Position numbers and translations under genes: made by a program
The notes under the pieces: model-generated
What the model saw: the letters and a program-made list of their open reading frames with translations, nothing else
What the model was told of the DNA's origin: nothing
Database searches by the model: none
From: a virus
Reading direction: 5' to 3' (one strand)
Length of the DNA stretch: 64,000 nt
IMG/VR virus record: IMGVR_UViG_3300045988_025287
Coordinates: 37,747-101,746 of that record
In this document: positions 2,680 through 26,276 of the stretch, piece after piece
How positions within the stretch are numbered: position 1 is the stretch's first letter
Layout of the letters: each line of letters opens with the position of its first letter

Positions 2680-2871
2680 ATTATCTATAACGCAAATATT
2701 AAGAATAATTACAGATATTTAACATAAATTAAACATATTTTAAAAATAAAATATAAAAAATTTTATAAAAATTTTTTGAGAGAGGTGGTGCGTGTGTGTG
2801 AAGTACTACTCCAATTCATCCCCGGCTGTTATTAATCGCGGGAACACCCCCGCCAATAAAATCAAAGTATT
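2680..2871. promoter_or_regulatory. divergent control region between leftward and rightward operons
   Basis: About 100 nt of nearly pure A/T (2690-2790) followed by a GC-rich element (GGTGGTGCGTGTGTGTG..CCCCGGC..GCGGGAACACCCCCGCC). No promoter consensus was scored. Confidence 0.3.
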
Positions 2872-2970
2872 ATGAGTTTATCAGATTGTATTTTTATTCC
2901 CACAGATGAAGATGAGGAATATGTTGATGCATTAGCTGATGCATTGGAGTATTATAGGAGCTATGAGTAA
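2872..2970 (+). CDS. possible small acidic protein (32 aa)
   Basis: ATG..TAA ORF encoding MSLSDCIFIPTDEDEEYVDALADALEYYRSYE. Its stop sits in the loop of an 11-bp hairpin (AGGAGCTATGA/TCATAGCTCCT). Confidence 0.25.
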   Translation: MSLSDCIFIPTDEDEEYVDALADALEYYRSYE

Positions 2971-3033
2971 TCATAGCTCTCCTACTCAATTCATTCACAA
3001 CTGTAATACCATGCACATTAAATATATCAAGAT

Positions 3034-3177
3034 ATGAAGTACAGAATTGATGCTTATTACAAAAGTGGTGCTGTTAAGCAAGGCACAAAGTTATTAGACA
3101 ATATTGATGAGGCTATTAAGCTTGCATATGCTGTTGCTAAACATTACAAGTGTTATACAAGAATAGCCAGAGTTTAA
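3034..3177 (+). CDS. possible small protein (47 aa)
   Basis: ATG..TAA ORF beginning MKYRIDAYYKSGAVKQG..., followed by the hairpin ATAGCCAGA-GTTTAA-TCTGGCTAT (3163-3186). Confidence 0.3.
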   Translation: MKYRIDAYYKSGAVKQGTKLLDNIDEAIKLAYAVAKHYKCYTRIARV

Positions 3178-3258
3178 TCTGGCTATCTCTTAGTAAACAG
3201 TTACAATTCATACTCATCTTAATAGAATTGCATTATTAACCATTTAAATATTTAACTT

Positions 3259-3489
3259 ATGTTAACTAAAGTTAAAGAGGTGAGTAAAAGACTCATCACA
3301 GGTGGCTTACTTTGTATAGCCATCGGAGTTGTTCAGGGATTTGCTGTACAGATGTTAGGCTTATCCTCAATGTTCCCTAATCATGTTCAGCTATTTGGTA
3401 TGCTACTAATGGTAGGTATCACTAGCATATTAATAGGTGCTATTATGCTATTGTTTATATGGCTAATAAACATGGTTAACAAACTCTAA
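3259..3489 (+). CDS. small membrane protein (76 aa, 2 TM)
   Basis: ORF track. Two hydrophobic helices. Confidence 0.5.
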   Translation: MLTKVKEVSKRLITGGLLCIAIGVVQGFAVQMLGLSSMFPNHVQLFGMLLMVGITSILIGAIMLLFIWLINMVNKL

Positions 3490-3507
3490 GCCACTCTAAA
3501 TGGTTAT

Positions 3508-3539
3508 AGCGGGGAGTCGTGCACTCCCTGCTTTTATTC
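3508..3539 (+). terminator. intrinsic terminator
   Basis: 10-bp stem AGCGGGGAGT/ACTCCCTGCT with loop CGTGC, followed by TTTATT. Confidence 0.6.
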
Positions 3540-3572
3540 AGTATCCGGTATTCAGTATCTGGTATTGAGTAC
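3538..3572 (+). repeat. tandem 14-mer TCAGTATC(C/T)GGTAT x2 plus a partial third copy
   Basis: Direct reading: TCAGTATCCGGTAT TCAGTATCTGGTAT TGAGTAC. Lies upstream of the 3796 gene. Candidate operator. Confidence 0.5.
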
Positions 3573-3795
3573 TTACACCGGCTGCGCACGAACCCCATTC
3601 AGCTGCGTCTGCCAAGAATCGGAGGAAAACAGAAAAGTTCTTCCCGCAATATCATGTGAGCGTTATATAATGATTACGTTTAGATGTGGTAGTGTATAAA
3701 AACCACTCCAGTTTGAGCATACTGTAAAAAGCTCATCATTACTTCACCAAGTAATATATAGCCCTTATAGATTATTCACCAAAAAACATATTATC

Positions 3796-4563: not shown

Positions 4564-5429
4564 TAAATAAAAAAACTCAATAACTTCGGAGTAGCGTAAG
4601 CTACGGAGTTGTGTAACAATCCCAAGACATTGAGGGCACCAGTTTCTTATTCATTTTACTAAACATAATTGTAATCTAAACTACTATAGGGATACTCCTT
4701 GGGAGGATAATTATATGACAGAGGAAGTAGTAGAATAAGTTTTAGGTGTAAAATGCAATTTAATCATTAACTAAATAAATAATCATATGGACAGAGATAC
4801 AAGATTAGGTATGTTATCAGTAATAATCACAATGATAGTATTATATCTATCTATATGGTTATTTAACTAAGATATACAGATTTATTCGCAAAGTAATTAT
4901 TCTATGAAATGCAAATTATCCTCATATGTTGTGAAACATAGTTTAACCACGTTAAAGTATAATAATATAAGTTAGGTATGCCCTTATAAAGACTTAGGTA
5001 GCGCTAAGGACTATATTATTATACTTCTCTTCTTAATGCAACTACATCTCTCGTAAGCAATAACCGTGACAAGTCGGGGAGAGAACACATTTGAGTTTAT
5101 GTGTCAAGAATGCAGAGTCAAGAATACTATATGAAACCTACTGGAGATAGGTAATGCACAACCGTCAAGAGTGTAAGGAAGTATAGTATAATCCACGTGG
5201 TAGATGCAGTTGTAGGTTCCAACTGGTGCACATCTTTTAGAGACAGTAACCAAGCTCGAAGTAAGCAGAGCGAAGACAATTAGCTATACCTCGATAGGCT
5301 TAATGAGGTGCTTAACAGTCTGACACTAACTGAACAATAAGTGTCTGTTCATCCTCAAAGAGGAAAATGTTGAACTCTACAGACATGTAGACAGCTCCAT
5401 TAACTCTAGCTGTAACAAAGAGTTATTAA
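4564..5429 (+). ncRNA. ORF-free island bracketed by the two related hairpins
   Basis: No ORF of 60 aa or more in any frame. All three stop codons are frequent in every frame. Contains only a 27-aa TM mini-ORF (4787-4870). GTCAAGA occurs 3 times (5103-5170). Function unknown. Confidence 0.3.
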
Positions 5430-6243: not shown

Positions 6244-6711
6244 TAAGTTAATGCAGTAAATATTACTGCATCTTTAAGGTGAGAATCCTTAACAATCCTG
6301 TGGGGCTTATATCTCGTGTTTATAGTAGTGGTGTCACGAGTATTAGTGCAGACGTTAAAATCAGGAACAACTATATTAGACGGCAATATTACCTTCTTCC
6401 AGTCGCAAATGTCATATAGTTTAATATAGCCAAGTTCGTTCGTCCTTAGATTTATGGTATTAGCCATTTGTTTATTTAATCATCGTTTCATTCTTAATTG
6501 TACAGATTGATTAATTAAGCATAACAGTAAGCGTACTGTTGTCAGTATATTTATATGTGAATATAGATATACTGATTGCACTCATTAAGGTAGCCTTCAT
6601 GTGGCGAGTGTGTTAAGTAATAGGTCTAAAGAATCTTCCAGTTTGTACCTATGAAAACTAATACCTTTAACCGCCAGCTCACGCGGTATATAAGACAGGA
6701 TTGCCGGACCC
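6244..6711 (+). ncRNA. ORF-free structured island (family with the 8.1 kb and 18.0 kb elements)
   Basis: Several perfect hairpins: TGCAGTA/TACTGCA, CTCGTG/CACGAG, AACAGTA-AGCG-TACTGTT, CAGTATAT/ATATACTG. Shared motifs TGTGGGGC (6299) and GTGCAGACGTTAAAATCA (6347). Confidence 0.35.
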
Positions 6712-8075: not shown

Positions 8076-8465
8076 GACTAGACCTTCTTTTTAGTTAATA
8101 TTAGAGTCTAGTATACTCAGTCTGTGAAGATAGAGTATACGTCCTCAGAAAATGACAAACATGTGGGGCGGGAGTAAATAAGTAAAACTAAGCAGTAGTA
8201 TTATATATCAGTAAGGATACTACGCCGAATCTGATTGTTTTGTTTATTTATAGTCGTGCGGACGTTAAAATCATGTACTCCAATAAGATTTAGTTTGACA
8301 GCTATTTCTGCTTACGAGTTAAAACTATAGTGAGAGTCATAGTAAGTAACGATTGTAGTCGTTTATCTTTGTCTTATAACAAATGCTATAAACTAAGTTG
8401 GCACTAACTTAATTAAATCCTGAGTGCCCAGGCGTCATTATTAACAATTTAAATTTTTTAGAAAC
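8076..8465 (+). ncRNA. ORF-free structured island (same family as 6.3 kb)
   Basis: No ORFs. Motifs TGTGGGGC (8162), ACGCCGAAT (8222) and TAGTCGTGCGGACGTTAAAATCA (8251). Confidence 0.35.
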
Positions 8466-9675: not shown

Positions 9676-9712
9676 TTTAAATTGTTAGTAAAATGGTGGA
9701 TTCAGTCAACCC

Positions 9713-9866
9713 AAAGAACTGTTTAAGACTAGAACCCTAATGGAAATTGTCAATCAAGAGTACAATGGACTATACAACGGTCAACCACATTATATGTAGG
9801 TCAGGAGAAGGCAGGGAGTCTCCTGTTGAATAAGAAGTACAAATAGACAGGAACAGTTCTTTTTAA
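9713..9866 (+). ncRNA. structured element closed by an 11-bp long-range helix plus T-run
   Basis: AAAGAACTGTT (9713) pairs with AACAGTTCTTT (9852) and is followed by TTTTAATT. Inner hairpin CAGGAG..CTCCTG. Confidence 0.35.
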
Positions 9867-10657: not shown

Positions 10658-11302
10658 CTAAATCAAAACAAATAAAAGAGGTTCCAAGCTTAGAATCTTT
10701 GAATCAATAGCTTAGTATGTGAGTCGGAAATAGTTCTTTTGAACTCTAGGGCCTGAGGCATACAAGGACCTGAATTAACAGGTCTCATACAGAATTTTAA
10801 ATCAGTTATGGGGAACTACCGTGAACTACTGATCATAAGTCTGAGATCGCGACAATAAGATTGTCCTCTAGAAATAGAGAAACGCTCTAGTCGTGACATC
10901 AAGTTTAGACTGAATAATATGAATCTTTGAATCGTTTAAAGTATCTATACTTTAACTATTATTCGTGTATTATCAAGATCAGTATAAGAGAACTAACCAT
11001 TCTCAAGACCATAGGGTATATGACTTTGGTCGGTCATATACCCACAATAGAGTAGGTATAATACCGAACTGTAAAAAGAATTGACTGTTAGGTCTATTTA
11101 TGCCTTCAGGTGACCGCGGGGCAGTACCGCGCACATCCACTAAAAAAATATAATAAGGGTGTGAAATAGTATTGAACCGTTGAAACAGAATAGAATAGGT
11201 CAATAAGCAGATAACTGGCAATACAAGTTATGTAACGGACTATACTGGTATCGCAGCGTGATAACAGAGTCCAACGGCTAAGCTAATGTCGTAGAAAGCT
11301 GG
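10658..11302 (+). ncRNA. ORF-free structured island ending in a tRNA-like element
   Basis: No credible ORF. The 13-mer GAATCTTTGAATC occurs at 10693 and 10921. Hairpins GGTATATGAC/GTCATATACC and CGCGG/CCGCG. TAGTCGTG motif at 10893. Confidence 0.3.
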
Positions 11303-11421: not shown

Positions 11422-11700
11422 ATGGGATTAATGAATTTTATTAGACAGAATCTTCCAGAATCATGGGAGAAAGCTGCAACAGAGATGAGAATGAAGACTG
11501 AATTAATAACTCGTCTTCATAATGTAGTACCTCGTGCTTATAAGAATAAGTATCACTACAAAGAAGGAATATCTTATATTAGAAGAGTATTCAATACTAA
11601 ATGTGATATAATACATTTAGTAGATGCTACTGATATAGATATCACTAAATGGAATGAATTAAGTAGTAAAATAAAAGAATACGAATATCAATGCGTGTAA
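11422..11700 (+). CDS. hypothetical protein (92 aa)
   Basis: ORF track. Start of a run of overlapping genes. Confidence 0.5.
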   Translation: MGLMNFIRQNLPESWEKAATEMRMKTELITRLHNVVPRAYKNKYHYKEGISYIRRVFNTKCDIIHLVDATDIDITKWNELSSKIKEYEYQCV

Positions 11701-11876
11701 GATATTTTGCTTGGTTTGACTCTAAACATGAAAGAACAGAGTTCATTAACTTACTCAGATCAGCTAAATCTGATATTGATGCAGTTAATAAAGTGATGCA
11801 AAAATATCCAGAGTTAACTTTATCAGAAGTATCTGGAATAGTAAATAACTTTAAAAAAGAAATTAATCAACCATGA
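11691..11876 (+). CDS. hypothetical protein (61 aa)
   Basis: ORF track. Overlaps both neighbours. Confidence 0.45.
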   Translation: MRVRYFAWFDSKHERTEFINLLRSAKSDIDAVNKVMQKYPELTLSEVSGIVNNFKKEINQP

Positions 11877-12334
11877 GACTCAATCATCCTGGTATCTACA
11901 GAATTGTAGGTGAAAACTTTGAGCTTCTTGCCAATATAATTGGAGAAGTTCCTTGTATGAGAATTACTTCTGCACTATTAGTTAATAACTTAGTACAGAA
12001 AGGAGAATTTACTATACTTCCTGAAGACTCTATTGAAATTCAGAGCGTATTAGCGAATCCCGACAAATTTGTTTTTCTAGAGTATGAATACTCAGAAATA
12101 TGTTCATTACCATCTTATCGTCAATCGATTCATGGTACAAAAATGCCCGCTATAACTGACGAACAGTTAAAGACATTTACTAATAAATACCTTGAAGATA
12201 TTGGAATATATGGACGAGGTGTAGCCGCAACTAAAGCTTATATATTAGAGACTACAGGTTGGTCATTAGCCCAAATTAATGTAGTACTAATGAAAATAGC
12301 TAAAAGAGTAAAGCAGCAATATGTTAATTTATAG
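11873..12334 (+). CDS. hypothetical protein (153 aa)
   Basis: ORF track. ATGA overlap upstream. TAG stop with a TAA back-up 12 codons later. Confidence 0.55.
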   Translation: MRLNHPGIYRIVGENFELLANIIGEVPCMRITSALLVNNLVQKGEFTILPEDSIEIQSVLANPDKFVFLEYEYSEICSLPSYRQSIHGTKMPAITDEQLKTFTNKYLEDIGIYGRGVAATKAYILETTGWSLAQINVVLMKIAKRVKQQYVNL

Positions 12335-12713
12335 TTTGACAAACCATATATATACCACTTGGGGAGTTAAATATAGTTCATTTAACTGGCGACCTGAGTG
12401 GTATACCTTTTTAAGAATACAAAAAAGGGAATTAAAAGAACTAGAATTTCATGAATCTTATAAAGTTCAAACTGTAAAATATTTAATATTTTGGTTTGAT
12501 AATAGGATAATACAAAAGATAGGAGTCGATAAAGATTTAACTCTAAAGGTTCGTATAAGAATATTATGTGGATTAATTAATAATACTCCTACTAGTGTAC
12601 TTACTAGACCTATGAAAATAGAATTCATGGAATGTATATGGGATACTTATAATAAATTCTACAAAGATTGGTATGAATATTATTGTAGGAATGTACTAGA
12701 ATTGCCATTTTAA
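12321..12713 (+). CDS. hypothetical protein (130 aa)
   Basis: ORF track. Confidence 0.5.
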   Translation: MLIYSLTNHIYTTWGVKYSSFNWRPEWYTFLRIQKRELKELEFHESYKVQTVKYLIFWFDNRIIQKIGVDKDLTLKVRIRILCGLINNTPTSVLTRPMKIEFMECIWDTYNKFYKDWYEYYCRNVLELPF

Positions 12714-12761
12714 GTCTATAGAGTCTTGGTTGACTCTATAGGCACACTAAAGCCCGTAATT

Positions 12762-13322
12762 ATGACAGATGAAGAAAGACAACAGCTTTTAGATCTGATC
12801 AAGCAGGCTAAAGAAGGTAAACAATATGCCTTCACACAGCTTTATAATCGTTATCACAGAATTATATACAATACTATATATAATATTGTACACAATAAGG
12901 ATGTAACAGATGATTTAGTATCTGTAACGTTTACTAAAGCTTTCTTTAAGATAGCTAGTTATATTAATCATATTTCATTTGAAATGTGGTTAAAAACTAT
13001 CGCTATAAATAGTAGTATTGATTATATACGACGTACTAAAAAAGAGAAGTATGATTATGAGTTAGATAATGATAATAACTGTCTACAGGTAAGCAGTTCG
13101 GCCGACAGCTCACCAGAAGATGTCTACATCTATCATGAGACGGATAGTAAGTTATCTGATGCACTAAACAGACTTCGCTATAAGTATAGGTATATACTTG
13201 AACTACGCACAGTTCAGAATCTCTCTTACAAGGAGATTGCTGAACATCTTGAGCTCTCTGAGTCTCAAGTAAAATCTCGCCTTAATAAAGCGAGAGAGAA
13301 ATTAAAACAATTGTTAAACTAA
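12762..13322 (+). CDS. ECF-type sigma-70 family RNA polymerase sigma factor
   Basis: Region 2-like: FTQLYNRYHRIIYNTIYNIV..DDLVSVTFTKAF..WLKTIAINSSIDYIRR. Region 4 HTH: LELRTVQNLSYKEIAEHLELSESQVKSRLNKAREKL. The ATG at 12762 is preferred over the TTG at 12726 used in the track. Confidence 0.8.
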   Translation: MTDEERQQLLDLIKQAKEGKQYAFTQLYNRYHRIIYNTIYNIVHNKDVTDDLVSVTFTKAFFKIASYINHISFEMWLKTIAINSSIDYIRRTKKEKYDYELDNDNNCLQVSSSADSSPEDVYIYHETDSKLSDALNRLRYKYRYILELRTVQNLSYKEIAEHLELSESQVKSRLNKAREKLKQLLN

Positions 13323-13338
13323 AAAACATTTACTAATT

Positions 13339-13710
13339 ATGACACCAGCAATTATTGGGCTATTAACTGTAGCATTTATCCTTGCACGGTTATTCCGTAG
13401 TACAGGAATGTGGTGGAAACTTGTTTTCGCCATTATGGCTGGTCTATTAGTAGGTATTTTAAGTAAGGAAGTAGTTAAGTCAGATAATGATAAGACTACT
13501 TCTCTTACTAGTTTAGTTAGCACCATGAGTAATGATGATGCTTTAACATGCATGCAAAGCTTAGTAGCTACAGTGACAGAAGGTACTACCATTCGCCTTA
13601 CTGGGGTTGCAGGTTACATTGTTAAAGATGAAGAATTATTCGATGCACTAACTAAAAGTAATACCTTTACTAATGGACGTGACTCACCAGAAATAGAGGA
13701 TGATAGTTAA
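13339..13710 (+). CDS. two-TM membrane protein downstream of the sigma factor (candidate anti-sigma)
   Basis: ORF track. Two N-terminal TM helices. The role is suggested by position only, and no anti-sigma motif was seen. Confidence 0.5.
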   Translation: MTPAIIGLLTVAFILARLFRSTGMWWKLVFAIMAGLLVGILSKEVVKSDNDKTTSLTSLVSTMSNDDALTCMQSLVATVTEGTTIRLTGVAGYIVKDEELFDALTKSNTFTNGRDSPEIEDDS

Positions 13711-13785
13711 CCTCTTAAACTAATCCATCTTTTTAATTGTACTTAATAATAACTTTTATTTTAACACTTTAAAACATTATCAAAA

Positions 13786-15300
13786 ATGGCAAAAGAAATG
13801 AGTAAGGCTGAAAGAAAGGCAGCCTTGAAAGCAGCAAAAGCAGCAGCAAAAGCTGAAGCTAAAGTAAACAACACTGAGAACAAGAAAGAGGAAACTAATC
13901 CTCAGGTAGATAACAAGCCGAAAGATGCTAAAGTAGAGGATGCAAAGAAAGCTCCTACTACAGCTAAGGAAACTAAGGTTCAGGCGAAGAAGGATGCCCC
14001 TAAAAGTCCGGATAAGCCTAAGAAGAAGGAAGAGAAAATTCCTACAATCATTCCTGAAGATGCAACAGGTAAGAACAGCCCTGAAAAGAAAGCTGTAGAA
14101 CGTGCTGCAAACCTTATCACAGGAATTCCTACGGCCGGTATACCTATTGGTTCAAGAGAATCATCTGTTGATGGTAAGGCTATGTTAGCATTTGTAATGC
14201 AACAGCGTTATGCTAACAATGAAGAACTCAAGAAGCAATATCCTGAGTTATATGCAGACATCAATCGTAGCATTGATGTAGTTACTTTGTTAGCTCTTGT
14301 CGATGTACGTCAAGACTTGTTCGACCGTGGTGAACGTGGCGAATTGCAGTTACAGATAGCTGCAGACCAAGTATTACCGCTGCAAAGTATGGCAGAAATG
14401 CTAGGTATTAAACTAGCTCCTGCTAAAGCTCTGCCTGGGAATGATGGGCAAATGTCTATTAACTTCTCAGAAAGTGAAGTACCTACAGAACTTGCAAACA
14501 GCAAGCCAAAAGTAGAAATTCCAGAGCTTGATCCTAACAAGATTACTAATGATGAGGAATTGAAAACTGCCCTTAATTACCTCATCTCTAAAGAGAAGAA
14601 TGTGGCAGAAAATATAGTTAACACTGTAGAATGGTATCGTGTATATCGCGGCCTGAAAGAAACTAATGCAGATAAGAAGCTTGCATTAGACGAAAAGACA
14701 GTTACAGATTGGATTAATGAGATATTCTCTATTATCCAACCTACAGCCATCTTACGTGGTTTAGGTCGTGCTGTATACTTATATACTTCACAGACAGGTT
14801 CACCGTGTATGGCTCACTCTATCATGCATACACATATGTCTAAGGCTGGTTGGAGTGAAGAACAAGTAGCAGAAGCATTACGTGCTTTAATTGGAGAAAA
14901 CTTCCGTTATAAACTGAAGGATGATCCTGAAGCAAAGCCTGAAGAAGATAAAGCAATTAATGCTATTACTGGCTTACTAGGCAATGACTATATTGATAAG
15001 TTATTTGCCGACTATACTATTACTACTGATGGTGTAGAAGACAGTAAGAAAGTTGAACTTGAAGCTGCACGTGAAGTTGCCCGTAAGGTTCTAGGGAGTA
15101 TTCGTACCAATTACTTTGACAAACAGAAGGAGACTCCTACGCTTGATAAGATGCGTATGGTAGTAGGTCAGATTATTAATCTGTATCGAAATCCGGCTGA
15201 TCGTCTTGCAGAGTATTGTCAAGGAGATTTAATCGCTCCAAAGGAAGACGAATATCCTAAGAATGAAGAGAAATCTGAAGGGACTGAAAAAAAAAACTAA
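13786..15300 (+). CDS. hypothetical protein with Lys/Ala/Pro/Glu-rich (histone H1-like) N-terminal region (504 aa)
   Basis: ORF track. N-terminal ~100 aa KAERKAALKAAKAAAKAEAK..KKDAPKSPDKPKKKEEK, followed by a globular part. Confidence 0.7.
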   Translation: MAKEMSKAERKAALKAAKAAAKAEAKVNNTENKKEETNPQVDNKPKDAKVEDAKKAPTTAKETKVQAKKDAPKSPDKPKKKEEKIPTIIPEDATGKNSPEKKAVERAANLITGIPTAGIPIGSRESSVDGKAMLAFVMQQRYANNEELKKQYPELYADINRSIDVVTLLALVDVRQDLFDRGERGELQLQIAADQVLPLQSMAEMLGIKLAPAKALPGNDGQMSINFSESEVPTELANSKPKVEIPELDPNKITNDEELKTALNYLISKEKNVAENIVNTVEWYRVYRGLKETNADKKLALDEKTVTDWINEIFSIIQPTAILRGLGRAVYLYTSQTGSPCMAHSIMHTHMSKAGWSEEQVAEALRALIGENFRYKLKDDPEAKPEEDKAINAITGLLGNDYIDKLFADYTITTDGVEDSKKVELEAAREVARKVLGSIRTNYFDKQKETPTLDKMRMVVGQIINLYRNPADRLAEYCQGDLIAPKEDEYPKNEEKSEGTEKKN

Positions 15301-15371: not shown

Positions 15372-15773
15372 ATGAATAATAGAATGTTAACTGTAGTTGG
15401 AATGTTTGTTGTCAGTGTATTCATTGGTAGGCAAATGTTTGCAACTACAGAAGTTATACAGGCACAGCCTGTTATACCCTCTATAGTGGAGTTACCTAAC
15501 TTCCCTAAAGTAATAAAAGAGGAGAAAAAGTCTGTAGATGAGATAAATGTCGAAGTCGACTTATCTACATTAGAAGTATCTGTGAAAGGAACAACAGACG
15601 CAAAAGTGAATGTAAAAACTACTGGTGAACCAAAGCCAGTAGTTAAGTGGAAAACTAAAGTAATAGAGAAGACGAATTCAACAGGATATCCGAAAGTAAA
15701 AGCTATAAGTAAGGTATCTGATGACGAATCACCGGCAACTCCATTAACAATAGTAGATAAATATGAACAATAA
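15372..15773 (+). CDS. hypothetical secreted/membrane-anchored protein (133 aa)
   Basis: ORF track. N-terminal hydrophobic helix. Confidence 0.5.
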   Translation: MNNRMLTVVGMFVVSVFIGRQMFATTEVIQAQPVIPSIVELPNFPKVIKEEKKSVDEINVEVDLSTLEVSVKGTTDAKVNVKTTGEPKPVVKWKTKVIEKTNSTGYPKVKAISKVSDDESPATPLTIVDKYEQ

Positions 15774-16185
15774 AATTATACTTCAACAGATGATACGTCT
15801 ATCACGTATCATTAAGGACTCAAGAGAAGCAAGAGCTAAATTGAATTCTATTCAAGCTCAAACTGAATACTTTATAGTAGAAGGTAATCAGTCTACTTTT
15901 ATTAGAGACCAAGCTAACAGTAGTATAACTAATTGTTTATATGTAGAACAGTACTTACGTTCGTCTGTAAGTAATGCTTGTAAATGTTTGGATGGTTTTG
16001 ATGCTTCAAAAATGGAACCAATAGACTACATCAGTAGTAGTGATGTAAAAAATAAGTTTGTCGACATATGTCTAGGTAAGAAAGTAGTAGCTTCTATTAA
16101 TCTTACCACTGGTGAAATAATAAGCATCAATACACCAAAACAAGGATTAACGGCTAAAGATGACAGCCCTACGGTAAAAAGTTAG
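15763..16185 (+). CDS. hypothetical protein (140 aa)
   Basis: ORF track. Ends TAG TGA TAA TAA, i.e. all three stop codons in tandem. Confidence 0.55.
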   Translation: MNNKIILQQMIRLSRIIKDSREARAKLNSIQAQTEYFIVEGNQSTFIRDQANSSITNCLYVEQYLRSSVSNACKCLDGFDASKMEPIDYISSSDVKNKFVDICLGKKVVASINLTTGEIISINTPKQGLTAKDDSPTVKS

Positions 16186-18291
16186 TGATAATAACCGTAT
16201 AATAAATACTATAATTATATCACAGTTCGAGAGGAGTAAAACTATAGCGTAAATCACTCCGAGGAAGTCATGCGGTAAGGTATATAATAATACTGGTCGC
16301 ACCTGTCAGGGAGTTTGGAATCATTTCTCCATAGCCCGAAAAGTTACATGATCCGAGAATATGTTAGCAGCTAAAACTGTGAGATTACTCAAAAGGTAGG
16401 ATGTTAGCTTATGTAATTGAAAACTACATAAGAGGGGATAAGCGTGTACAATCCTCATTAGGAAGTGAGAACCGTTTGGAGACTTCTAAAGACGCAGTAC
16501 TAAAGAGAAGACACACTGAGTGCTAAACAGTACAAAGGGAACGAAATCCCTATATCCGTATTAGTTTATCAAAAGCAGAATCAAAAAGGGATATAAACAC
16601 GATGACGAAACAGGGACAATACGGTTCCTGACTTATTCCTTTGGAAAGAATAAGTAAAGCCGAGAGGCAAAGGTTAGTTTCACCTTAAGAAGCAGCCAGC
16701 TCGTGGAAAAAAAGAGATTGCAGATAACGCATTACCGGTCTCCAAAATCGGTTAACAAAAGCGCTACTGTGCGTCCAGAAAGGGAAACAGGCTAACTCTA
16801 GTGTTCAGTATACATCAGCTGTGATGCAATATGCAATTGTGGATATTGGAACTTATACTTATGAAGGGAGTAAACTACTAATACTAATGTAAGGATAACC
16901 GTGTTATGGTACATACTTATACAAAGTAAGGATATGAAAGCTGGAAACGCAATGATCCAAGAATTAAACGTGCAAACGTTAAAGCTTGACTGATTAACGT
17001 GGAGCAGGAGCCAATCCTGTACATTATCGTAAATAGTGTGCTGTAAAAGAACTTACGTATAAGGGATGAGGTATATGAGATTGATACCATCTTTCAAGTC
17101 TAAGGTGACTCATGAGTTTTGTCGTGTAGATGAGTATAATGTATGAGAAATGACGAGACTAAAATATAATAGTCTAAAATGCGAGTATGAGGGCGCTATA
17201 ACCCTGAACTTAGAAGCGGACACCTTTAGCAAGTGTTATTACGTGGTAATAAATAAGATTAGGAGATGCAGAGAAAACTCCTTGTAAAAAACGGCAGAGC
17301 TTAAGCATTTCAAGATATGTAAATGCCTTTGATTTATTATGCTAGTTCACACCAGAATTTTGGATAATAAACATCGTTATGGATTAAGGAAGTAAATAGA
17401 GTTATTAAAGATGCTTTAGAGTTAGAATCCTAAAACCAGTTTAGTAATAATTATAGTATATGATGATATACTTAATGAATCAATTTTACTTACGCTGAGT
17501 AGAGTCAGCTATGACAAAATGAACTCTAATTATTTAACTTTTTAATTAATTGGGAAGTCCAATGATAGTACAGAGATTTCAAACTACTATTGTAAAGTAG
17601 GAGTTAAGGAGTACGAGTCACCCCGACTGCCAACCGACATTGCTGACTGTTAAGACACTCGTAAAGTACAATGCGCAACATTGTATGTGAGAGAACGCTG
17701 AGTCGTTAGTTACCTGTGTTGTTTCTTACACTGTCTCTGTAAGGGCAATAGTACACTTATGATGAAAGTATTCCATAAGCAAACAAGGAGACGATGATAG
17801 GTGGAAATCCTAATGTTCGTGCAGTATAAACAAACAAATCCTGGAAATGGTATAGATGGGTCATGCTATAAGCAATGAGTCTATGATTTTAGTAATGTTA
17901 GATTAAACAACCGTAATTCTAGCGAATTTCGATAATATCCGGACATACTCAGTAGGTTCTAAGGAACTGATGATAAAGTGGCTTATATCGCATCTAATCG
18001 CGTTATACGCTTACGGTGAGGGGTGCGTTAAGCATCGAAGGAATTGAATCTTAACCGTCGAAACGGGACGTTAAAACAAAAAATATCAGAAATTATCAGA
18101 AGTAACTCACAGAGTATTTCTCATAAATTTTCAATTTATTATTTTTATGCTTAGTAGATTATGTGATTGAGTTCACCTATTCCAATTTTGAATAGCTATT
18201 AAATAATCGAACGGTGGAGAGACTTTAACAATTTTTTGTATAACTATGTTCGTATTGGTATATCAAGTACGGACTCAAAAAGGAACATTTT
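16186..18291 (+). ncRNA. 2.1 kb ORF-free, purine-rich, hairpin-dense island (candidate giant structured RNA)
   Basis: No ORF of 60 aa or more in six frames. TAA, TGA and TAG all recur in every frame I sampled, so recoding does not rescue it. Many short perfect hairpins, several GAAA-capped: ATGTA-ATTGAAAAC-TACAT, GGGA-ACGAAA-TCCC, CTTATTC..GAATAAG, AGACTA..TAGTCT. Ends with the GACGTTAAAA motif (18067). Confidence 0.4.
18084..18101 (+). promoter_or_regulatory. phased TATCAGAA repeats (2 copies, 10-nt spacing)
   Basis: TATCAGAAATTATCAGAA is identical to 26224-26241. Lies about 190 nt upstream of the 18292 ATG. Confidence 0.4.
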
Positions 18292-18918
18292 ATGGAAAAT
18301 AATATTAATGGAGCTAACACTCCGGGTTTAGCAGCTCAAATTTTAGCTCGCTATCGGCAAACAGCCCAGAAGTTTGGGCCTTTCTTTGGACAGCAGATAT
18401 TTACAATCGTAGCACAGACTCCTGACCTTAAGTGGAAAGAAGATGTAGCTACAGGTAAGAATACTTTCCGTCAGGAAGTAAAAGCTTATATTCTCAAGGC
18501 TATTGATGTTGAGTCAGTTAGTTTACTTGAGAAGGATGTTGATGGACGTCCGAAAATCATCTTGAATGAAAAGAAGAATGATCCATCATTAGTTTTTGAG
18601 CTTGCTGATCCTGAATTTACTAAAGCAACCCGGCAGAATGTAATTGAATGTATTGAACGGTTGAGTAAACCAGGCTCTAAGCCTATGTTCTTTACAGCTG
18701 AAGAACTTCCTATGTTGAATGACTTAACTAAGTTATCCAACCAGAGTGTGTTGAACTTCTATGAAGAAATGACACGTAAGTGTATGCAGTTAGCTGAAAC
18801 TGTCCGTGGTTATATGGATATGAATCAGCGTATGCAGGTTGAGTATTTACGGCAGTGCGGTTTAGATAATCAGGAAACTGAAATTCACGTAACTGCTACA
18901 ATTACTGAAGAAAAATAG
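18292..18918 (+). CDS. hypothetical protein (208 aa), terminated by TAG-TAG
   Basis: ORF track. Stops at 18916-18921 are TAG TAG. Same frame as 18928..19491. Confidence 0.6.
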   Translation: MENNINGANTPGLAAQILARYRQTAQKFGPFFGQQIFTIVAQTPDLKWKEDVATGKNTFRQEVKAYILKAIDVESVSLLEKDVDGRPKIILNEKKNDPSLVFELADPEFTKATRQNVIECIERLSKPGSKPMFFTAEELPMLNDLTKLSNQSVLNFYEEMTRKCMQLAETVRGYMDMNQRMQVEYLRQCGLDNQETEIHVTATITEEK

Positions 18919-18927
18919 TAGAAGCTT

Positions 18928-19491
18928 ATGAACGGCAGACTTTCTTCATTACGTGTAGAACTTCTGCGAATTCTAATATGTTCTGAGCCAGCCATATTGT
19001 CTAAAATTCAGATTTGGAATGGAGGACGTACAGAAACGCCTAAAAAAGTAAGTATTAGAGAAGATGGACGGGTCTTCCTATTTTACGGAAGTGGGCCATT
19101 ATGGTGGCAAAGATTATTTAATACTTATGAATCGGTAAGTATTATAGATGCTTCTATTAGTATAGCAGATGCAATCACTGGGTCGAATTCGACTCGAAAT
19201 GAATTTGCTTTTAACGAGATTACTAAGAGTATAATCGACGAAGCAAAGAAACGTAAGGATTTCGATTGTATTGTTGATATTTTGTTTGATTGTATGAGGA
19301 ATTGTTCAGATGGGGAACTACATTCCAAATGGATTAATCAAGAGAATATCAAAAAATATGCAAGAGAAAATGGTATAACCAATGTTGAAGACATTAACCT
19401 TGAAGGGCTTAATGGAATAGTTGGAATTAAGACTGGTGGACGGGTTATTCCTATAGTACTCGGCCAGTTAAGAAAATTTAGAAAATATTGA
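18928..19491 (+). CDS. hypothetical protein (187 aa), possibly the C-terminal part of a TAG read-through fusion
   Basis: ORF track. In frame with 18292..18918 across TAG TAG AAG CTT ATG. Confidence 0.55.
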   Translation: MNGRLSSLRVELLRILICSEPAILSKIQIWNGGRTETPKKVSIREDGRVFLFYGSGPLWWQRLFNTYESVSIIDASISIADAITGSNSTRNEFAFNEITKSIIDEAKKRKDFDCIVDILFDCMRNCSDGELHSKWINQENIKKYARENGITNVEDINLEGLNGIVGIKTGGRVIPIVLGQLRKFRKY

Positions 19492-21134: not shown

Positions 21135-21205
21135 TCTCATGTAGCTCAGTGGTAGAGCCGCTACTATGTAGTGTGAACGCGTTGGTTCGAGTCCAACCAT
21201 GAGAT
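21135..21205 (+). tRNA. tRNA-like gene with aberrant anticodon arm (identity undetermined)
   Basis: Canonical acceptor TCTCATG/CATGAGA, D arm GCTC-AGTGGTA-GAGC and T arm GTTGG-TTCGAGT-CCAAC. The anticodon region CGCTACTATGTAGTG folds as a 5-bp stem with a 3-5 nt loop, not the 5 bp + 7 nt form. Confidence 0.45.
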
Positions 21206-21227
21206 CTAACTTTTAAATACTTATAAT

Positions 21228-23207
21228 ATGATTATACGAGGAAAGATAGTCTACGTATATGATATTGAGGTATTTCAAAATATCTTTCATTGTTCGGTAA
21301 AAAATACAGAAACAAACGACATCTATAAGTTTGAGATATCAGAGAGGAAAAATCAACTAAGAGAATTAGTTAAATTCTTTAAACAGGTAGATAAATATAT
21401 TACTTGGGGAGATTATTATACTACAAATATTAATATTCCAGCAAATATTATATTCTGTGGTTATAATAACTTGCATTATGATAATCCTATAATCAATTAT
21501 ATAATTGAATATGAAGATAAATTAATGCAATATAATATACCTACTATATGTAGTTCTATATTTAACCTAAGTAAAACTATAACTACTTCGAGTGAAGATA
21601 ATATAGATGCATGGAAGCATTGGAAGTATCAGATATGGTTTGATACTTTTGATATTCTTACTATGTTATATTCTAATAAACTTAGAGTAGGTTTAAAGGA
21701 AATTCAAGTAACAATGCAATATCCTAATGTACAGGAATTTGTATGTGATTGGACTAAACCTCTTCCTTTAGAAGATTTTGACTCTATGATAGATTATAAT
21801 ATTAATGATATTGAATCTACTTCAGAATTATTAAATAGATGTAAGAAAGACATTGATTTACGAATCGCTATTGAAGATGAGTATGGAGTAAGAGTACTTA
21901 GTAAAGATGGCGTAAATATTGGAATAAAGATTTTAACTCAGAAATATCTAGAAAAGACAGGTTTAACTTGGCAGGATATTAAAGATTTAAGATCTCCAAT
22001 GAGTGTAATACCATTGAAAGATGTAATATTACCATTTATTAAATATGATAGCCCTATTCTGCAAAGAGTATTAGATGATATGAAAAATCAGATAGTATCT
22101 CCAGGTAGAAAAGGATATGAGAATAAGTTTGTATTTAATAATTTACGCTATTCTGTAGGAGTAGGAGGTATTCATTCTGTGAATAGTCCTGAAATCATTA
22201 TTCCTAGAGATGATGAAATGCTTATAGATATAGATGTAGCTTCTCTATACCCAAGTATGCTTATAGAATATGAATTCTATCCTAAACATTTAGGTAAAGA
22301 ATTCCTAGAAGTATATAAGCAAATTAAAGATGAGCGAATTGAAGCTAAACACAACGGCGATAAAGTAAAAAATGAAACTTTAAAGTTAGCTTTAAATGGT
22401 TTATCAGGTAACTTACAGAATGAACATAATTTCTGTTATGCCCCCGAAGCTGCTATGAAAATTAGAATCAACGGACAGTTACTATTACTTATGTTAGCTG
22501 AAAAATTAACTCAAATTGGATGCCGAATCGTCCAAGCAAATACTGATGGTTTATTCGTCTTACTAAAGAAAGATATATATTCTAAAGTAAACAGTATTTG
22601 TAGAGAATGGGAACAGCTTACTAAACTTACTTTAGAAGAAGATCGTTTTAAAGCAATGTATCAATATGCTATTAATGATTATTTTGCTATTACTGAAGAT
22701 AACAAAGTAAAAGAGAAAGGAATGTTTATTACTACTGTAAAATTAGGTAAAGGATTAACTCCAAAGATTATACCTAAAGCAGTAATAAGTTTCTTTAAAG
22801 ATGGAATATCAGTTGAAGATACAATTAAGAATTGTACAGATATAAGAGATTTTCTAATGTCTGAGAAAACTGGTAAACAATGGCATGTTGAATATATGAA
22901 CGAGGAGCAACAAAGAACTAATCGTTTCTACGCATCTACTAATGGTGGATACTTGTGGAAATGGAAAGATACTGGTCATAAAGAAGGTGAAATTATAACA
23001 TATACTGAGCCATACGTAGGAGAACGTAAATATAAGGCTTCTGCAAGACAGTATCAGAATATGCTTACTGCATCTGGTGTTACTCTTCTAAATAAATTTG
23101 ATAATAAACCAATTGAAGAAAGAAAGATTAATTATAGGTATTATATTATGGAAGCCTATAAGATAATCAGAGATTTAAAACCGTTACAATTGAGCCTATG
23201 GGATTAA
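21228..23207 (+). CDS. family B DNA polymerase
   Basis: Exo I VYVYDIEVF, Exo II YNNLHYDNPI, Exo III YNINDIES. Motif A DIDVASLYPSMLI, motif B KLALNGLSGNL, motif C QANTDGLFV. Confidence 0.85.
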   Translation: MIIRGKIVYVYDIEVFQNIFHCSVKNTETNDIYKFEISERKNQLRELVKFFKQVDKYITWGDYYTTNINIPANIIFCGYNNLHYDNPIINYIIEYEDKLMQYNIPTICSSIFNLSKTITTSSEDNIDAWKHWKYQIWFDTFDILTMLYSNKLRVGLKEIQVTMQYPNVQEFVCDWTKPLPLEDFDSMIDYNINDIESTSELLNRCKKDIDLRIAIEDEYGVRVLSKDGVNIGIKILTQKYLEKTGLTWQDIKDLRSPMSVIPLKDVILPFIKYDSPILQRVLDDMKNQIVSPGRKGYENKFVFNNLRYSVGVGGIHSVNSPEIIIPRDDEMLIDIDVASLYPSMLIEYEFYPKHLGKEFLEVYKQIKDERIEAKHNGDKVKNETLKLALNGLSGNLQNEHNFCYAPEAAMKIRINGQLLLLMLAEKLTQIGCRIVQANTDGLFVLLKKDIYSKVNSICREWEQLTKLTLEEDRFKAMYQYAINDYFAITEDNKVKEKGMFITTVKLGKGLTPKIIPKAVISFFKDGISVEDTIKNCTDIRDFLMSEKTGKQWHVEYMNEEQQRTNRFYASTNGGYLWKWKDTGHKEGEIITYTEPYVGERKYKASARQYQNMLTASGVTLLNKFDNKPIEERKINYRYYIMEAYKIIRDLKPLQLSLWD

Positions 23208-23264
23208 CAGAGGCTTATCAGATATATTTCAGATAAACCATAAGCTTATATAATATATAAGACT

Positions 23265-26202: not shown

Positions 26203-26223
26203 TTAAAATATCTTATTCCATTT

Positions 26224-26251
26224 TATCAGAAATTATCAGAACTTTATCAGA
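26224..26251 (+). promoter_or_regulatory. phased TATCAGA repeats (3 copies, 10-11 nt spacing)
   Basis: TATCAGAAATTATCAGAACTTTATCAGA lies 26 nt upstream of the 26277 ATG. The first 18 nt are identical to 18084-18101. Confidence 0.45.
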
Positions 26252-26276
26252 GGAATACAAAAAAATAAAAGCTTTT

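Follow-up and report, generated by a model that had tools for sequence, protein, structure and literature searches.

GOLLD, found in Lactobacillales and lake phages, is a giant ornate RNA about 0.8 kb long; its Rfam model (RF01998) is defined by conserved core helices and a pseudoknotted 3′ half. ROOL, the rumen-originating ornate large RNA, is about 0.6 kb long, and OLE is a chromosomal RNA of extremophilic Firmicutes. GOLLD is reported to form a multimeric cage (PMC12286853).

Here we analysed a 64,000-nucleotide stretch of DNA (the window) from a Suoliviridae (delta crAss-like) phage that is about 93% identical to cr53_1, in which a first-pass annotation had singled out an ORF-free island at 16186–18291. 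We think it reasonably probable, on comparative sequence grounds, that this island is the gene for one very large (about 1.9 kb, roughly 16186–18080), highly structured non-coding RNA on the plus strand. The element, about 1.9–2.1 kb long, may rank among the largest structured RNAs known outside the ribosome. Its position, orientation, length and many 10–33-nt blocks are kept across Suoliviridae (Loutivirinae and Oafivirinae) and related unclassified phages.

A conserved non-coding element between two phage genes

The locus consists of the following features.
15763–16185, plus strand: upstream flanking gene of 140 aa (118–166 aa in relatives), always directly upstream of the element
16186–18080, plus strand: candidate large structured non-coding RNA of about 1.9 kb, ORF-free and syntenic, with non-coding indels and substitutions and with covariation in two domains
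18292–18918, plus strand: downstream flanking gene of 208 aa (197–227 aa in relatives), always directly downstream of the element

All relatives fetched (Loutivirinae, Oafivirinae and a lemur virus; more than 200 loci) have the element gap between the same two small genes, and no element-less genome or empty site occurs among these relatives. The search of related phages that the first-pass annotation had proposed found the element kept in position, length and sequence blocks in all of them, and conservation was absent from none of the more than 200 loci. All of the first 88 loci carry it at the same place, with a length of 2.09–2.15 kb. In deeper lineages, loci with both flanking genes have a gap of 2.0–2.33 kb, apart from one locus that measures 1.58 kb as far as a 110-aa ORF; the alignable part of the element is down to about 450 nt there, and profile matches to its 3′ domain in distant phages are colinear. 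Nucleotide identity of the element between genera is 71–77%, while the flanking 208-aa protein is only 53–57% identical; per 100 nt, the element is as identical as the flanking CDSs, and its longest invariant blocks reach 33 nt. The element alternates between invariant blocks and stems rich in indels.

The longest ORF within 16186–18291 has 57 aa and lies on the minus strand, in agreement with the first-pass statement that these 2,106 nt hold no ORF of 60 aa or more on either strand. The companion statement, that stops recur in each frame of the stretches translated and no codon reassignment rescues a gene, holds equally well: the six frames contain 36–75 stops each in the window element and 31–75 in nine other representatives, all three stop types are present in every frame of every representative, and making TAG, TGA or TAA sense within the element opens a few short frames and rescues no gene (for TAG, five open frames of at least 60 codons, 427 codons in total). 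In the late half of the window, reading TAG as sense doubles the open-frame total; the phage recodes TAG there. Period-3 power over the median is 0.7–0.9 in the first two thirds of the element and 5.1 in its last third, compared with 24–210 in five flanking CDSs, and triplet indels make up 16% in the element versus 67–77% in the flanking CDSs. The element is non-coding by three independent tests, and stops, periodicity, indels and recoding revealed no hidden split or recoded gene. Some relatives' RefSeq and GenBank records annotate small ‘hypothetical proteins’ within the element; these minus-strand ORFs vary from genus to genus, and most relatives lack them. The CDSs annotated there are spurious and should leave those records.

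The region 16186–18080 is 36% A, 21.5% G, 15.4% C and 27.1% T, which gives 57.5% purine and 37% GC (32% GC for the window), as the first-pass description of a purine-rich and less AT-rich plus strand implied. Cumulative GC skew has no inflection across the region.

The 140-aa upstream gene has no match in Pfam or PHROG, and the 208-aa downstream gene has no family, PDB-sequence or fold match. Analysis of the neighbouring proteins with PHROGs, Pfam, PDB profiles, AlphaFold2 (pLDDT 80 and 69) and Foldseek against PDB yielded nothing usable, with two exceptions; an ECF-type sigma factor is encoded at 12726–13322, and a 504-aa neighbouring protein has a K/A-rich disordered N-terminus. No RNA-binding fold is recognisable in the flanking proteins, and neither a reverse transcriptase domain nor a homing endonuclease was found among the neighbours. 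The element lies just upstream of the replication module, with DNA polymerase at 21228; in the relative cr53_1, the DNA polymerase gene is split by an HNH endonuclease gene. Other ORF-free islands of the same arm, where Rfam 15 cmscan detects six or more separate structured RNAs of small size, contain RAGATH-6, -7 and -9, Hatchet and tmRNA-like elements.

Folded domains and the 3′ limit of the element

The first-pass annotation had called the island hairpin-dense. Hairpins are present, but their density does not exceed chance thermodynamically: single-sequence folding energies of sub-domains are no better than those of shuffles (z −0.05 to −1.85), and, per kb, the flanking CDSs have a stronger minimum free energy (MFE) than the element. 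RNAalifold with pair counting on 13 Loutivirinae gave 127 compensatory pairs out of 389, with 94% of cells paired; the same pipeline returned 49–53 ‘compensatory’ pairs per kb on the coding flanks versus 60 in the element, and this covariation was dropped as evidence since the coding flanks score nearly alike. As comparison within Loutivirinae was non-discriminating, deeper lineages were sought. Stacks with at least three covarying pairs number 6.6 per kb in the element and 1.7–3.0 in coding controls, and this stacked-helix scan and a projection of the single-sequence MFE structure on the alignment give only a weak, 1.2–4-fold enrichment. Across the roughly 1.4 kb outside the two domains described below, the within-subfamily signal in Loutivirinae is 1.2–4 times that of coding controls, and structural support there is weak because coding flanks give nearly as many ‘compensatory’ pairs. 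Inter-domain pairs predicted in the 13-sequence Loutivirinae alignment are invariant, and none has covariation support. A scan of the element for sigma-70-type promoters and intrinsic terminators stayed at or near the shuffled-sequence level.

The 5′ region contains the following features.
16233–16260, plus strand: hairpin GGAGU...ACUCC, helix 3 of the RNAalifold set, nearly invariant in Loutivirinae
16309–16337, plus strand: hairpin Ha, with outer stem GGG/CCC, inner stem UGGA/UCCA and loop AUCAUUUC
16344–16487, plus strand: 5′ core domain (model R1), with helices P1, Hb, Hc, Hd and He
16351–16357 with 16388–16390 and 16399–16402, plus strand: P1, part of the 5′ core
16368–16370 with 16377–16379, plus strand: Hb, part of the 5′ core
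16408–16415 with 16425–16432, plus strand: Hc, part of the 5′ core, with a loop that contains GAAA
16434–16438 with 16452–16456, plus strand: Hd, part of the 5′ core
16461–16466 with 16482–16487, plus strand: He, which closes the invariant loop GAGAACCGUUUGGAG at 16467–16481

The first hairpin sits in a 5′ extension confined to Loutivirinae, and other lineages are without it. Ha (helix 8 of the RNAalifold set) also appears in the single-sequence fold; its pairing is kept by at least eight different stem sequences across lineages, with the loop UCYCAUUAG in other lineages. Misaligned variable stems in a MAFFT alignment of the wider 5′ region limited RNAalifold to 22 pairs, and its result was replaced by a hand-drawn structure and a covariance model. 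The structure of the 5′ core was drawn from one sequence with the others in view, and the single-sequence MFE structure differs from this covariation-supported fold. On an unfitted MAFFT alignment (A4), 91.2% of cells are paired (38–43% when slid), the covariation score is 0.483 (0.065–0.098 slid) and 213 cells change on both sides (26–53 slid), with none of 500 shuffles as good. On a model-based alignment of 64 distinct sequences, 95.0% of cells are paired, 22 of the 29 pairs vary and all 22 change on both sides, and double-change cells number 391 versus 29–67 slid. Five pairs of He take 3–5 pair types each (4–5 in four of them) with 96.8% of cells paired, and G–U wobbles recur in the core helices (for example GU:12, UG:11 and GU:8 in the model alignment). 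The covariance model R1 built on this domain found 87 matches in 88 loci and then matched 21 of 21 further loci, once per locus; in the window its sole match is the 5′ core site (126 bits, E 8e-27).

The second domain lies towards the 3′ end.
17555–17836, plus strand: 3′ conserved domain, a long-range helix around four hairpins
17626–17630 (ACUGC) with 17821–17825 (GCAGU) and 17635–17636 (CG) with 17818–17819 (CG), plus strand: covarying long-range helix
17584–17588 with 17596–17600, plus strand: hairpin with loop UUGUAA
17666–17672 with 17680–17686, plus strand: hairpin whose loop has GCAA
17726–17730 with 17738–17742, plus strand: hairpin with loop CUGUCUC
17799–17801 with 17809–17811, plus strand: hairpin with loop UGGAAAU

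Among 23 sequences from about eight lineages, 93.4% of cells in this domain are paired, 21 of 32 pairs change on both sides (5–10 slid) and the covariation score is 0.457 (0.03–0.14 slid); the long-range helix itself undergoes CG-to-GC and GC-to-AU swaps. The 5′ core and the 3′ domain are conserved across about nine deep lineages, and their compensatory changes beat phylogeny-preserving controls. The covariation analysis suggested at first pass, once deep lineages were added, places both domains far above slid and shuffled controls rather than at background level. Most of the variable helices of both domains contain G–U and U–G pairs on the plus strand, which would be A–C mismatches on the other strand, and the fold is thus assigned to the plus strand. 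In this comparative evidence, two or more domains are multi-helix folds with compensatory stem changes and invariant loops and junctions.

Five hairpins had been quoted from the island, and all are present, four of them as named helices. ATGTA..TACAT is helix Hc, further supported by both 5′ core alignments, and GGGA-ACGAAA-TCCC, CTTATTC..GAATAAG and GGTAT..ATACC are helices 14, 20 and 35 of the RNAalifold set (13 Loutivirinae). The fifth, AGACTA..TAGTCT, occupies a site that carries another hairpin sequence in other genera.

The 3′ end is organized as follows.
18013–18078, plus strand: 3′-terminal module, Loutivirinae-specific, containing GGUGAGGGGUGCG
18027–18037 with 18045–18055, plus strand: hairpin of the 3′-terminal module
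18055–18066, plus strand: hairpin CCGUCGAAACGG in the 3′-terminal module
18067–18076, plus strand: 10-mer GACGUUAAAA in the 3′-terminal module
18083–18101, plus strand: two tandem TATCAGAA copies, 10 nt apart, with exact copies elsewhere and kept in Loutivirinae
18102–18291, plus strand: AT-rich probable leader of the 208-aa gene, in whose alignment helices 78–81 are mostly invariant

Helix 73, in the 3′-terminal module, has five of nine pairs changed on both sides among the 13 Loutivirinae, and the motifs of the module are absent outside this subfamily. Both Hatchet ribozymes of the window have the 10-mer GACGUUAAAA, letter for letter, as their conserved core. The Hatchet model (RF02678) finds those two at 97.9 and 81.6 bits and has no match in 17850–18150 even at E ≤10. 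An assignment of the 3′ module to Hatchet was rejected, as hand mapping was unconvincing, P1–P3 could not be mapped and the model had no match. Two motifs had been described as common to smaller islands: GTGAGGGGTGCG in fact occurs once in the window, even allowing two mismatches, and GACGTTAAAA is indeed shared, but its partners are the cores of the two Hatchet ribozymes. The recurring repeats said to end the island are real, with tandem TTATCAGAR copies recurring upstream of other plus-strand genes. Exact tandem copies of TATCAGAA also lie at 26223, 26233 and 26244, degenerate ones at 23204 and 23215 and a single one at 11820, all just upstream of plus-strand genes; other Loutivirinae keep the motif in 2–4 copies. 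The tandem probably serves the downstream gene as an operator or promoter motif and lies outside the RNA. Beyond it, AGTAGATTATGTGATTGA.TTCAC and AAATAATCGAA.GGTGGAGAG are invariant blocks of the probable leader, which also has a hairpin adjoining the start codon. The structured part probably ends near 18080, and the last ~200 nt (18081–18291) would be the promoter and leader of the next gene; of the island first delimited as 16186–18291, the structured RNA part stands and the part past about 18080 is promoter- and leader-like. The 16186 and 18080 limits of the candidate RNA are approximate, and it may be co-transcribed with the upstream genes.

Competing readings and significance

Were the island the gene for one large structured RNA, it would be transcribed rightward along with the early genes and those of the replication module, since in all lineages the space ahead of the 5′ core is too small for a separate promoter. 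The element would act as a folded RNA, a scaffold or ribozyme-like machine composed of RNA only or working with phage proteins. Its invariant unpaired nucleotides would form tertiary contacts or binding sites; candidates include the 15-nt loop GAGAACCGUNUGGNG, AAUAUGU and CUCAAAAGGUAGGAUG. We propose only tentatively that the whole ~1.9 kb is a single autonomous RNA machine specific to Suoliviridae, a new giant ribozyme or self-assembling RNA particle, with a divergent, hatchet-like self-cleaving module perhaps trimming its 3′ end.

A tandem array of independent structured RNAs (about 100–300 nt each), possibly cut from a common precursor, would match the rest of the arm, whose ORF-free islands contain six or more distinct small structured RNAs. 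Covariation supports two units, the 144-nt core and the 280-nt domain, the latter with a closing helix of its own; no inter-domain pair has such support, and the 3′ end has a core motif common to a self-cleaving ribozyme. We hold this array to be possible though doubtful: total length stays at 2.0–2.3 kb in all lineages despite hundreds of indels, block order is strictly colinear, no internal promoter, terminator or ribozyme match was found, and the modules are never seen alone or elsewhere, with R1 giving one match per genome locus. It is improbable that the island serves as an untranslated, structured spacer within a polycistronic mRNA, with no role as a free RNA but acting in cis, as a leader or an element for processing and stability, to control the 208-aa gene or keep early and middle expression apart. 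In favour of such a spacer, the island has the orientation of both neighbours, a promoter of its own would not fit ahead of the 5′ core in any lineage, and its last 200 nt, with tandem TATCAGAA, resemble a regulatory leader. Two kilobases, however, far exceeds any known bacterial or phage leader, none of which to our knowledge approaches that length; invariant loops and junctions and closure by a long-range helix mark a tertiary fold rather than attenuators; and the downstream gene seems to have its own promoter-like motif past the structured part.

An ORF-less self-splicing intron or other mobile ribozyme is very unlikely, even though delta-group crAss-like phages have many group I introns (Yutin 2021, PMC7886860) and an HNH endonuclease gene splits the DNA polymerase of cr53_1. 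Group I and II models have no match even at E ≤10, each flanking ORF is an intact gene that has its own start and stop and is conserved separately, no empty site is seen as no genome examined lacks the element, and no homing endonuclease or reverse transcriptase was found. Hairpins could instead form in single-stranded DNA of a replication origin or packaging site, and a place just upstream of the replication module (DNA polymerase at 21228) and an AT-rich 3′ end with repeated motifs would suit such a DNA-level element. Frequent G–U wobbles specific to the plus strand, a 1.9-kb part without iterons, the absence of a cumulative GC skew inflection across the region and invariant 15–33-nt single-stranded blocks unexpected in an origin make this reading as remote as an intron. 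Recoding of TAG in the late half of the phage and the small ‘hypothetical proteins’ annotated inside the element in RefSeq and GenBank records of some relatives might hint at a decayed, split or recoded protein gene. This explanation is scarcely credible: each frame of every representative contains 31–75 stops, all three kinds included, codon periodicity is lacking, indels are non-triplet, recoding opens no frame, and the annotated ORFs are on the minus strand, genus-variable and missing from most.

The single large structured RNA, our preferred reading, would account for about 2% of each genome in these lineages that has so far been blank or filled with spurious ORFs. If it were a single RNA machine, no larger class of structured non-ribosomal RNA would be known from bacteria or their viruses, and its carriers are among the most abundant viruses of the human gut. 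Hundreds of natural variants are usable for covariation, an in vitro transcript is possible for cryo-EM, and model R1 is a specific metagenome marker for the Suoliviridae lineages concerned. Seen alongside the Hatchet, RAGATH and tmRNA-like elements of this arm, the element suggests a heavy early-infection investment in RNA-based functions.

Comparison with known RNA families

We ran Rfam 15 cmscan at the gathering threshold on the whole window, at E ≤10 on 15900–18500 and 17850–18150, and on 10 divergent homologous loci. The search identified a permuted tmRNA at 11080–11261 and was therefore working. No match was obtained at the element or in the 10 divergent homologues at gathering or E-value thresholds. 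Consistent with the first-pass view that the island is unlike a group II intron or RNase P, its proposed comparison with GOLLD, ROOL, HEARO, OLE, raiA, introns, RNase P and tmRNA returned no homology. GOLLD (RF01998) and ROOL (RF03087) models found neither the element nor its 10 homologues, nor did group I (RF00028 and related) or group II (RF00029, RF02001 and related) models, and RNase P, tmRNA, rRNA, OLE, HEARO and raiA models had no match at the element. We found no description of the element in literature on Crassvirales non-coding RNA, Yutin 2021 or the GOLLD and ROOL papers. Fremin and Bhatt 2021 do not describe it either, with candidates there of 27–219 bp only.

Group I and II introns, which are common in delta and zeta crAss-like phages (PMC7886860), resemble the element in being multi-domain with GNRA-like loops, and its size is near that of ORF-less group II introns; it differs in matching no intron model, in lacking 5′ GUGYG, domain V and an intron-encoded protein, and in neither interrupting a host gene nor leaving empty sites. 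Hatchet (RF02678) and RAGATH RNAs share its arm, strand and island-type context, and the 3′-terminal module has the exact 10-mer GACGUUAAAA and a G-rich block similar to that of Hatchet. However, the Hatchet model has no match at E ≤10, the motifs are limited to Loutivirinae and Hatchet is only ~100–135 nt long. Like the element, OLE, HEARO and raiA are large RNAs with invariant loop and junction nucleotides and covarying stems, and OLE works as an RNP together with genes next to it, to which the 140-aa and 208-aa genes that always flank the element may be a parallel; the element has no homology to these families, and its flanking proteins have no recognisable RNA-binding fold.

ROOL and the element share a setting, both being found in gut or rumen metagenomes, associated with phages or prophages and often near tRNAs, and both RNAs are defined by comparative genomics alone; the element has no homology to ROOL and is fixed between two specific phage genes. 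GOLLD and the element are both phage-encoded and very large, have many hairpins with conserved junctions and lie in genome regions rich in tRNAs and other non-coding RNAs, but the two have no sequence or structure homology and the element belongs to Crassvirales of Bacteroidota-rich guts. The first-pass annotation had been reminded of the GOLLD/ROOL class and asserted no homology, and a large structured non-coding RNA is supported with a resemblance of kind only. To judge from sequence and covariance models, the element is unrelated to GOLLD and ROOL and about three times larger, and would add a new family to the short list of giant bacterial-world RNAs at two to three times the size of GOLLD, ROOL or OLE.

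A conserved element between two genes of crAss-like phages

Searching GenBank with the 2.1-kb island returned matches in 8 crAss-like phage records that cover most of the query, the best being cr53_1 (NC_055889; Suoliviridae, Loutivirinae, Blohavirus) at 92.9% identity over the full length. The island lies on a genome arm with every gene on the plus strand.

Features of the arm around the element
4879-5029, +, RAGATH-6
5124-5346, +, RAGATH-7
6270-6366, +, Hatchet ribozyme
8141-8276, +, Hatchet ribozyme
9702-9862, +, RAGATH-9
11080-11261, +, permuted tmRNA
12726-13322, +, ECF-type sigma factor upstream of the island, with proteins of 123, 504, 133 and 140 aa, all without assigned function
13786-15300, +, the 504-aa protein
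15763-16185, +, the 140-aa protein
16186-18291, +, the island
18292-18918, +, 208-aa protein, followed in order by a 187-aa protein, tRNA-Arg and two more small proteins
21135-21206, +, tRNA-His
21228-23207, +, family-B-like DNA polymerase

In 8 of 8 GenBank relatives and 80 of 80 IMG/VR loci, the latter fetched through the upstream protein, the element sits between the same two genes and measures 2.09-2.15 kb. Between genera its nucleotide identity is 71-77%, compared with 53-57% for the adjacent 208-aa protein; per 100 nt, identity equals that of the flanking genes, and invariant blocks, the longest 33 nt, alternate with indel-rich stretches. When the Loutivirinae alignment was turned into a profile, it picked up colinear matches in three records further afield: cr131_1 (Oafivirinae, rhesus macaque), Dulem virus 42 (lemur) and a scaffold from a Mexican human gut. 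Two invariant blocks, combined into a DNA search pattern, matched 96 IMG/VR contigs, at least 120 metagenome contigs (mostly 95-105 kb among the matches listed) and, in MAG bins, four contigs (three of ~100 kb, one of 40 kb) that are most simply mis-binned phage genomes. GenBank matches were limited to Suoliviridae, in Loutivirinae (Blohavirus, Buorbuivirus, Buchavirus) and Oafivirinae (Burzaovirus, Cacepaovirus, Buhlduvirus, Bohxovirus), plus the unclassified lemur virus. Full elements form 17 clusters and about nine deep lineages sharing <40% blastn coverage. Among loci holding both flanking genes, all but one place 2.0-2.33 kb between the upstream 118-166-aa gene and the next 197-227-aa gene, the exception being L142 (1.58 kb, to a 110-aa ORF). 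A search of related phages had been proposed in the first-pass annotation, and it reveals an element conserved in position, length and sequence blocks.

Neighbouring proteins gave no clue to function in our searches, and the 208-aa and 504-aa proteins had no match in family, PDB and fold searches. The 504-aa gene, two genes upstream, always keeps synteny with the element. Its product has a K/A-rich N-terminal stretch of ~120 residues, predicted to be disordered, and C-terminal to it an all-helical domain without a PDB fold match; through this lysine/alanine-rich N terminus the protein is a possible nucleic-acid binder. Downstream, the tRNA-His (ARAGORN) has anticodon ATG, and A at position 34 is unusual for this tRNA; cr53_1 has a tRNA-His annotated at the same place. 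The DNA polymerase is an intact 659-aa ORF in the window; its counterpart in cr53_1 (11547-14127 of that locus) is split by an HNH endonuclease gene, probably an intron.

The island is non-coding

Consistent with the earlier reading that neither strand holds an ORF of 60 aa or more, the longest in 16186-18291 is 57 aa. Each frame contains 36-75 stops, and nine other representatives are similarly stop-filled. In the variability of aligned columns, period-3 power over the median is 0.7-0.9 in the first two thirds of the island and 5.1 in the last third, and 24-210 in five flanking genes; indels that are multiples of three make up 16% in the island versus 67-77% in flanking genes. Making any single stop codon sense opens just a few short frames, so the earlier statement that no reassignment rescues a gene also holds. 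The phage itself recodes TAG, because reading TAG as sense in 32000-64000 doubles the open-frame total (6488 to 13055 codons, in frames of at least 100 codons whose number falls from 43 to 35), and the island is still not rescued. TGA has a much smaller effect. TAG recoding, which has been reported for delta crAss-like phages (PMC7886860), is evident in the late half of this genome; the 64-kb window holds no suppressor tRNA. By three independent tests (periodicity, indel lengths and stop reassignment) the island DNA is non-coding.

Public records annotate minus-strand 'hypothetical proteins' within the element, one 145-168-aa CDS each in cr113_1, cr109_1, cr7_1 and Bohxovirus (minus strand; L005 4438-4875, L006 4440-4877, L315 1878-2360 and L317 2206-2712, by homologous locus), and thirteen tiny minus-strand ORFs in Dulem virus 42 (L090 3916-5924). 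These frames, not conserved between genera, are probably spurious. The 208-aa and 187-aa ORFs share a frame, separated only by TAG-TAG-AAG-CTT before the ATG (18916-18930), and their equivalents in the cr53_1 RefSeq annotation form one 399-aa CDS, after which lies a further HNH gene. In a phage with late TAG recoding, this junction could switch the product from a short protein early to a fusion late.

Covarying domains and the ends of the element

We aligned the 5′ core (16344-16487) from 36 sequences of all lineages with MAFFT and scored it, taking as reference the structure drawn for a single sequence (L095). Pairing was retained in 91.2% of cells versus 38-43% in slid controls with shifted partners, with 213 double-change cells versus 26-53 and a covariation score of 0.483 versus 0.065-0.098; 0 of 500 shuffles scored as well. 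This alignment served to build a covariance model, R1 (155 positions, 29 pairs), which has a single hit in the window (126 bits, E 8e-27), exactly one per locus in 87 of 88 loci, and again one each in 21 of 21 further loci. Realigned with R1, 64 distinct sequences keep pairing in 95.0% of cells; seven pairs are invariant, and each of the 22 that vary does so on both sides. The fold comprises a junction closed by invariant pairings AUCC/GGAU and GAG/CUC, and three variable-stem hairpins, Hb, Hc (GAAA-containing loop) and Hd (loop AGCGUUGUAUCAA). Helix He, with five pairs of three to five pair types each (96.8% of cells paired), closes an invariant 15-16-nt loop, GAGAACCGUNUGGNG, and just 5′ of the core hairpin Ha (16309-16337) presents a conserved loop on at least 8 different stems.

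Flanking Hb, positions 16367 and 16380 (columns 24 and 40 of the MAFFT alignment) vary together: some lineages have G and U there (TAGC...GUG), others A and C (TAAC...GCG). This is the pattern of an isosteric wobble pair; the two positions were left out of the pair count.

The 3′ domain (17555-17836), aligned from 23 sequences of about eight lineages, behaves similarly: 93.4% of cells pair, both-side changes occur in 21 of 32 pairs versus 5-10 when slid, and the covariation score is 0.457 versus 0.03-0.14. A long-range helix (17626-17630/17821-17825), with CG-to-GC and GC-to-AU swaps between lineages, encloses four hairpins with conserved loops UUGUAA, GCAA-type, CUGUCUC and UGGAAAU.

We discarded covariation among 13 Loutivirinae sequences as structural evidence. 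RNAalifold gave 389 pairs, 127 changed on both sides, with 94% of cells paired, far above slid and shuffled controls, but the same analysis of the coding flanks in these genomes yielded 49-53 both-side-changed pairs per kb versus 60 in the element; with about five clades only, most of this signal is a method artefact, so structure is argued from the deep lineages. Less biased statistics show modest enrichment, in double-change cells still pairing (0.57-0.64 versus 0.42-0.52) and in stacks with at least three covarying pairs (6.6 versus 1.7-3.0 per kb). The plus strand is purine-rich (57.5%) and has 37% GC versus 32% for the window, in agreement with the first description. All five hairpins quoted at that time are present, but their density is not thermodynamically significant: sub-domain z-scores in single-sequence folding are -0.05 to -1.85, and per kb the flanking genes have the stronger MFE.

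Motifs at the Loutivirinae 3′ end and related sites
18013-18078, +, two hairpins and GACGUUAAAA
18083-18101, +, two TATCAGAA copies 10 nt apart (TTATCAGAR site), then an AT-rich leader
11820-11828, 23204-23223 and 26223-26252, +, further TTATCAGAR sites
6351-6360, 8261-8270 and 18067-18076, the only three exact copies of the 10-mer GACGTTAAAA in the window

Outside Loutivirinae, 38-150 nt (77-119 nt in most) separate the upstream stop codon from the 5′ core, leaving little room for a dedicated promoter, so that co-transcription with the upstream genes would be the simplest reading. Tandem TTATCAGAR copies, 10-11 nt apart, directly precede several plus-strand genes (including those at 23265 and 26277), and 2-4 copies are kept in other Loutivirinae; the motif is probably an operator or promoter, although its overall count with one mismatch is not above chance. 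A simple promoter scan, limited to the sigma-70 type as distinct from Bacteroidota-type promoters, and a terminator scan gave nothing above the shuffled level. Of the GACGTTAAAA copies, two fall within the conserved single-stranded core of one Hatchet ribozyme each; the third is at the island's 3′ end, where block GGUGAGGGGUGCG is similar to cUGUGGGGCgUa, a segment of the Hatchet. This end could hold a processing module derived from a Hatchet, but the Hatchet model finds no match there even at E <=10, P1-P3 could not be mapped onto it, and the motifs are confined to Loutivirinae. In other lineages conserved 3′ blocks of their own, CAUUCAAAGCUUU and GAUGGGC, replace this module (compared in L095, L097, L089, L090, L140 and L156).

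We consider it very likely that the island is a functional structured RNA locus, and our somewhat favoured candidate is one large RNA that works as a folded scaffold or a ribozyme-like machine. That the island is instead an array of smaller RNAs seems rather unlikely. A cis-acting leader, an intron, a DNA element or a dead gene are less probable still, even taken together. The ~1.4 kb outside the 5′ core and 3′ domain draws structural support from within-subfamily comparison only. The 3′ third has been remodelled between subfamilies with its length kept. Stretch 18081-18291 probably supplies the 208-aa gene with its promoter, operator and leader. Wobble pairs, G-U and U-G, are common in the 5′ core and the 3′ domain alike, so the fold belongs to the plus strand.

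Relation to known structured RNAs

The early arm is unusually rich in structured RNAs: the RAGATH, Hatchet and tmRNA elements, all above Rfam gathering scores, occupy one ORF-free island each. A further 1.1-kb stretch (2680-3795) has no ORF of at least 80 aa and no Rfam match. The Rfam scan advised in the first-pass annotation, run with Rfam 15 on the window and ten divergent homologous loci, matched no known family in the island at gathering or E-value thresholds, while detecting the nearby tRNAs, tmRNA and ribozymes; GOLLD, ROOL, OLE, HEARO, raiA, group I/II intron, RNase P and rRNA-like candidates were ruled out accordingly. We found no description of the element in the searchable literature: Yutin 2021 (PMC7886860) touches on recoding and introns as well as unassignable short-ORF regions, without reference to the element, and a human-microbiome structured-RNA catalogue holds motifs of 27-219 bp only. 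The likeness to the GOLLD/ROOL class suggested at first reading does not extend to homology, which was never claimed, and the element is unrelated to these RNAs in sequence and about three times larger. It stands as a likeness in kind, in which these phage-borne ornate RNAs are the closest known counterparts: large, defined by comparative genomics, encoded among other non-coding RNAs and without known function.
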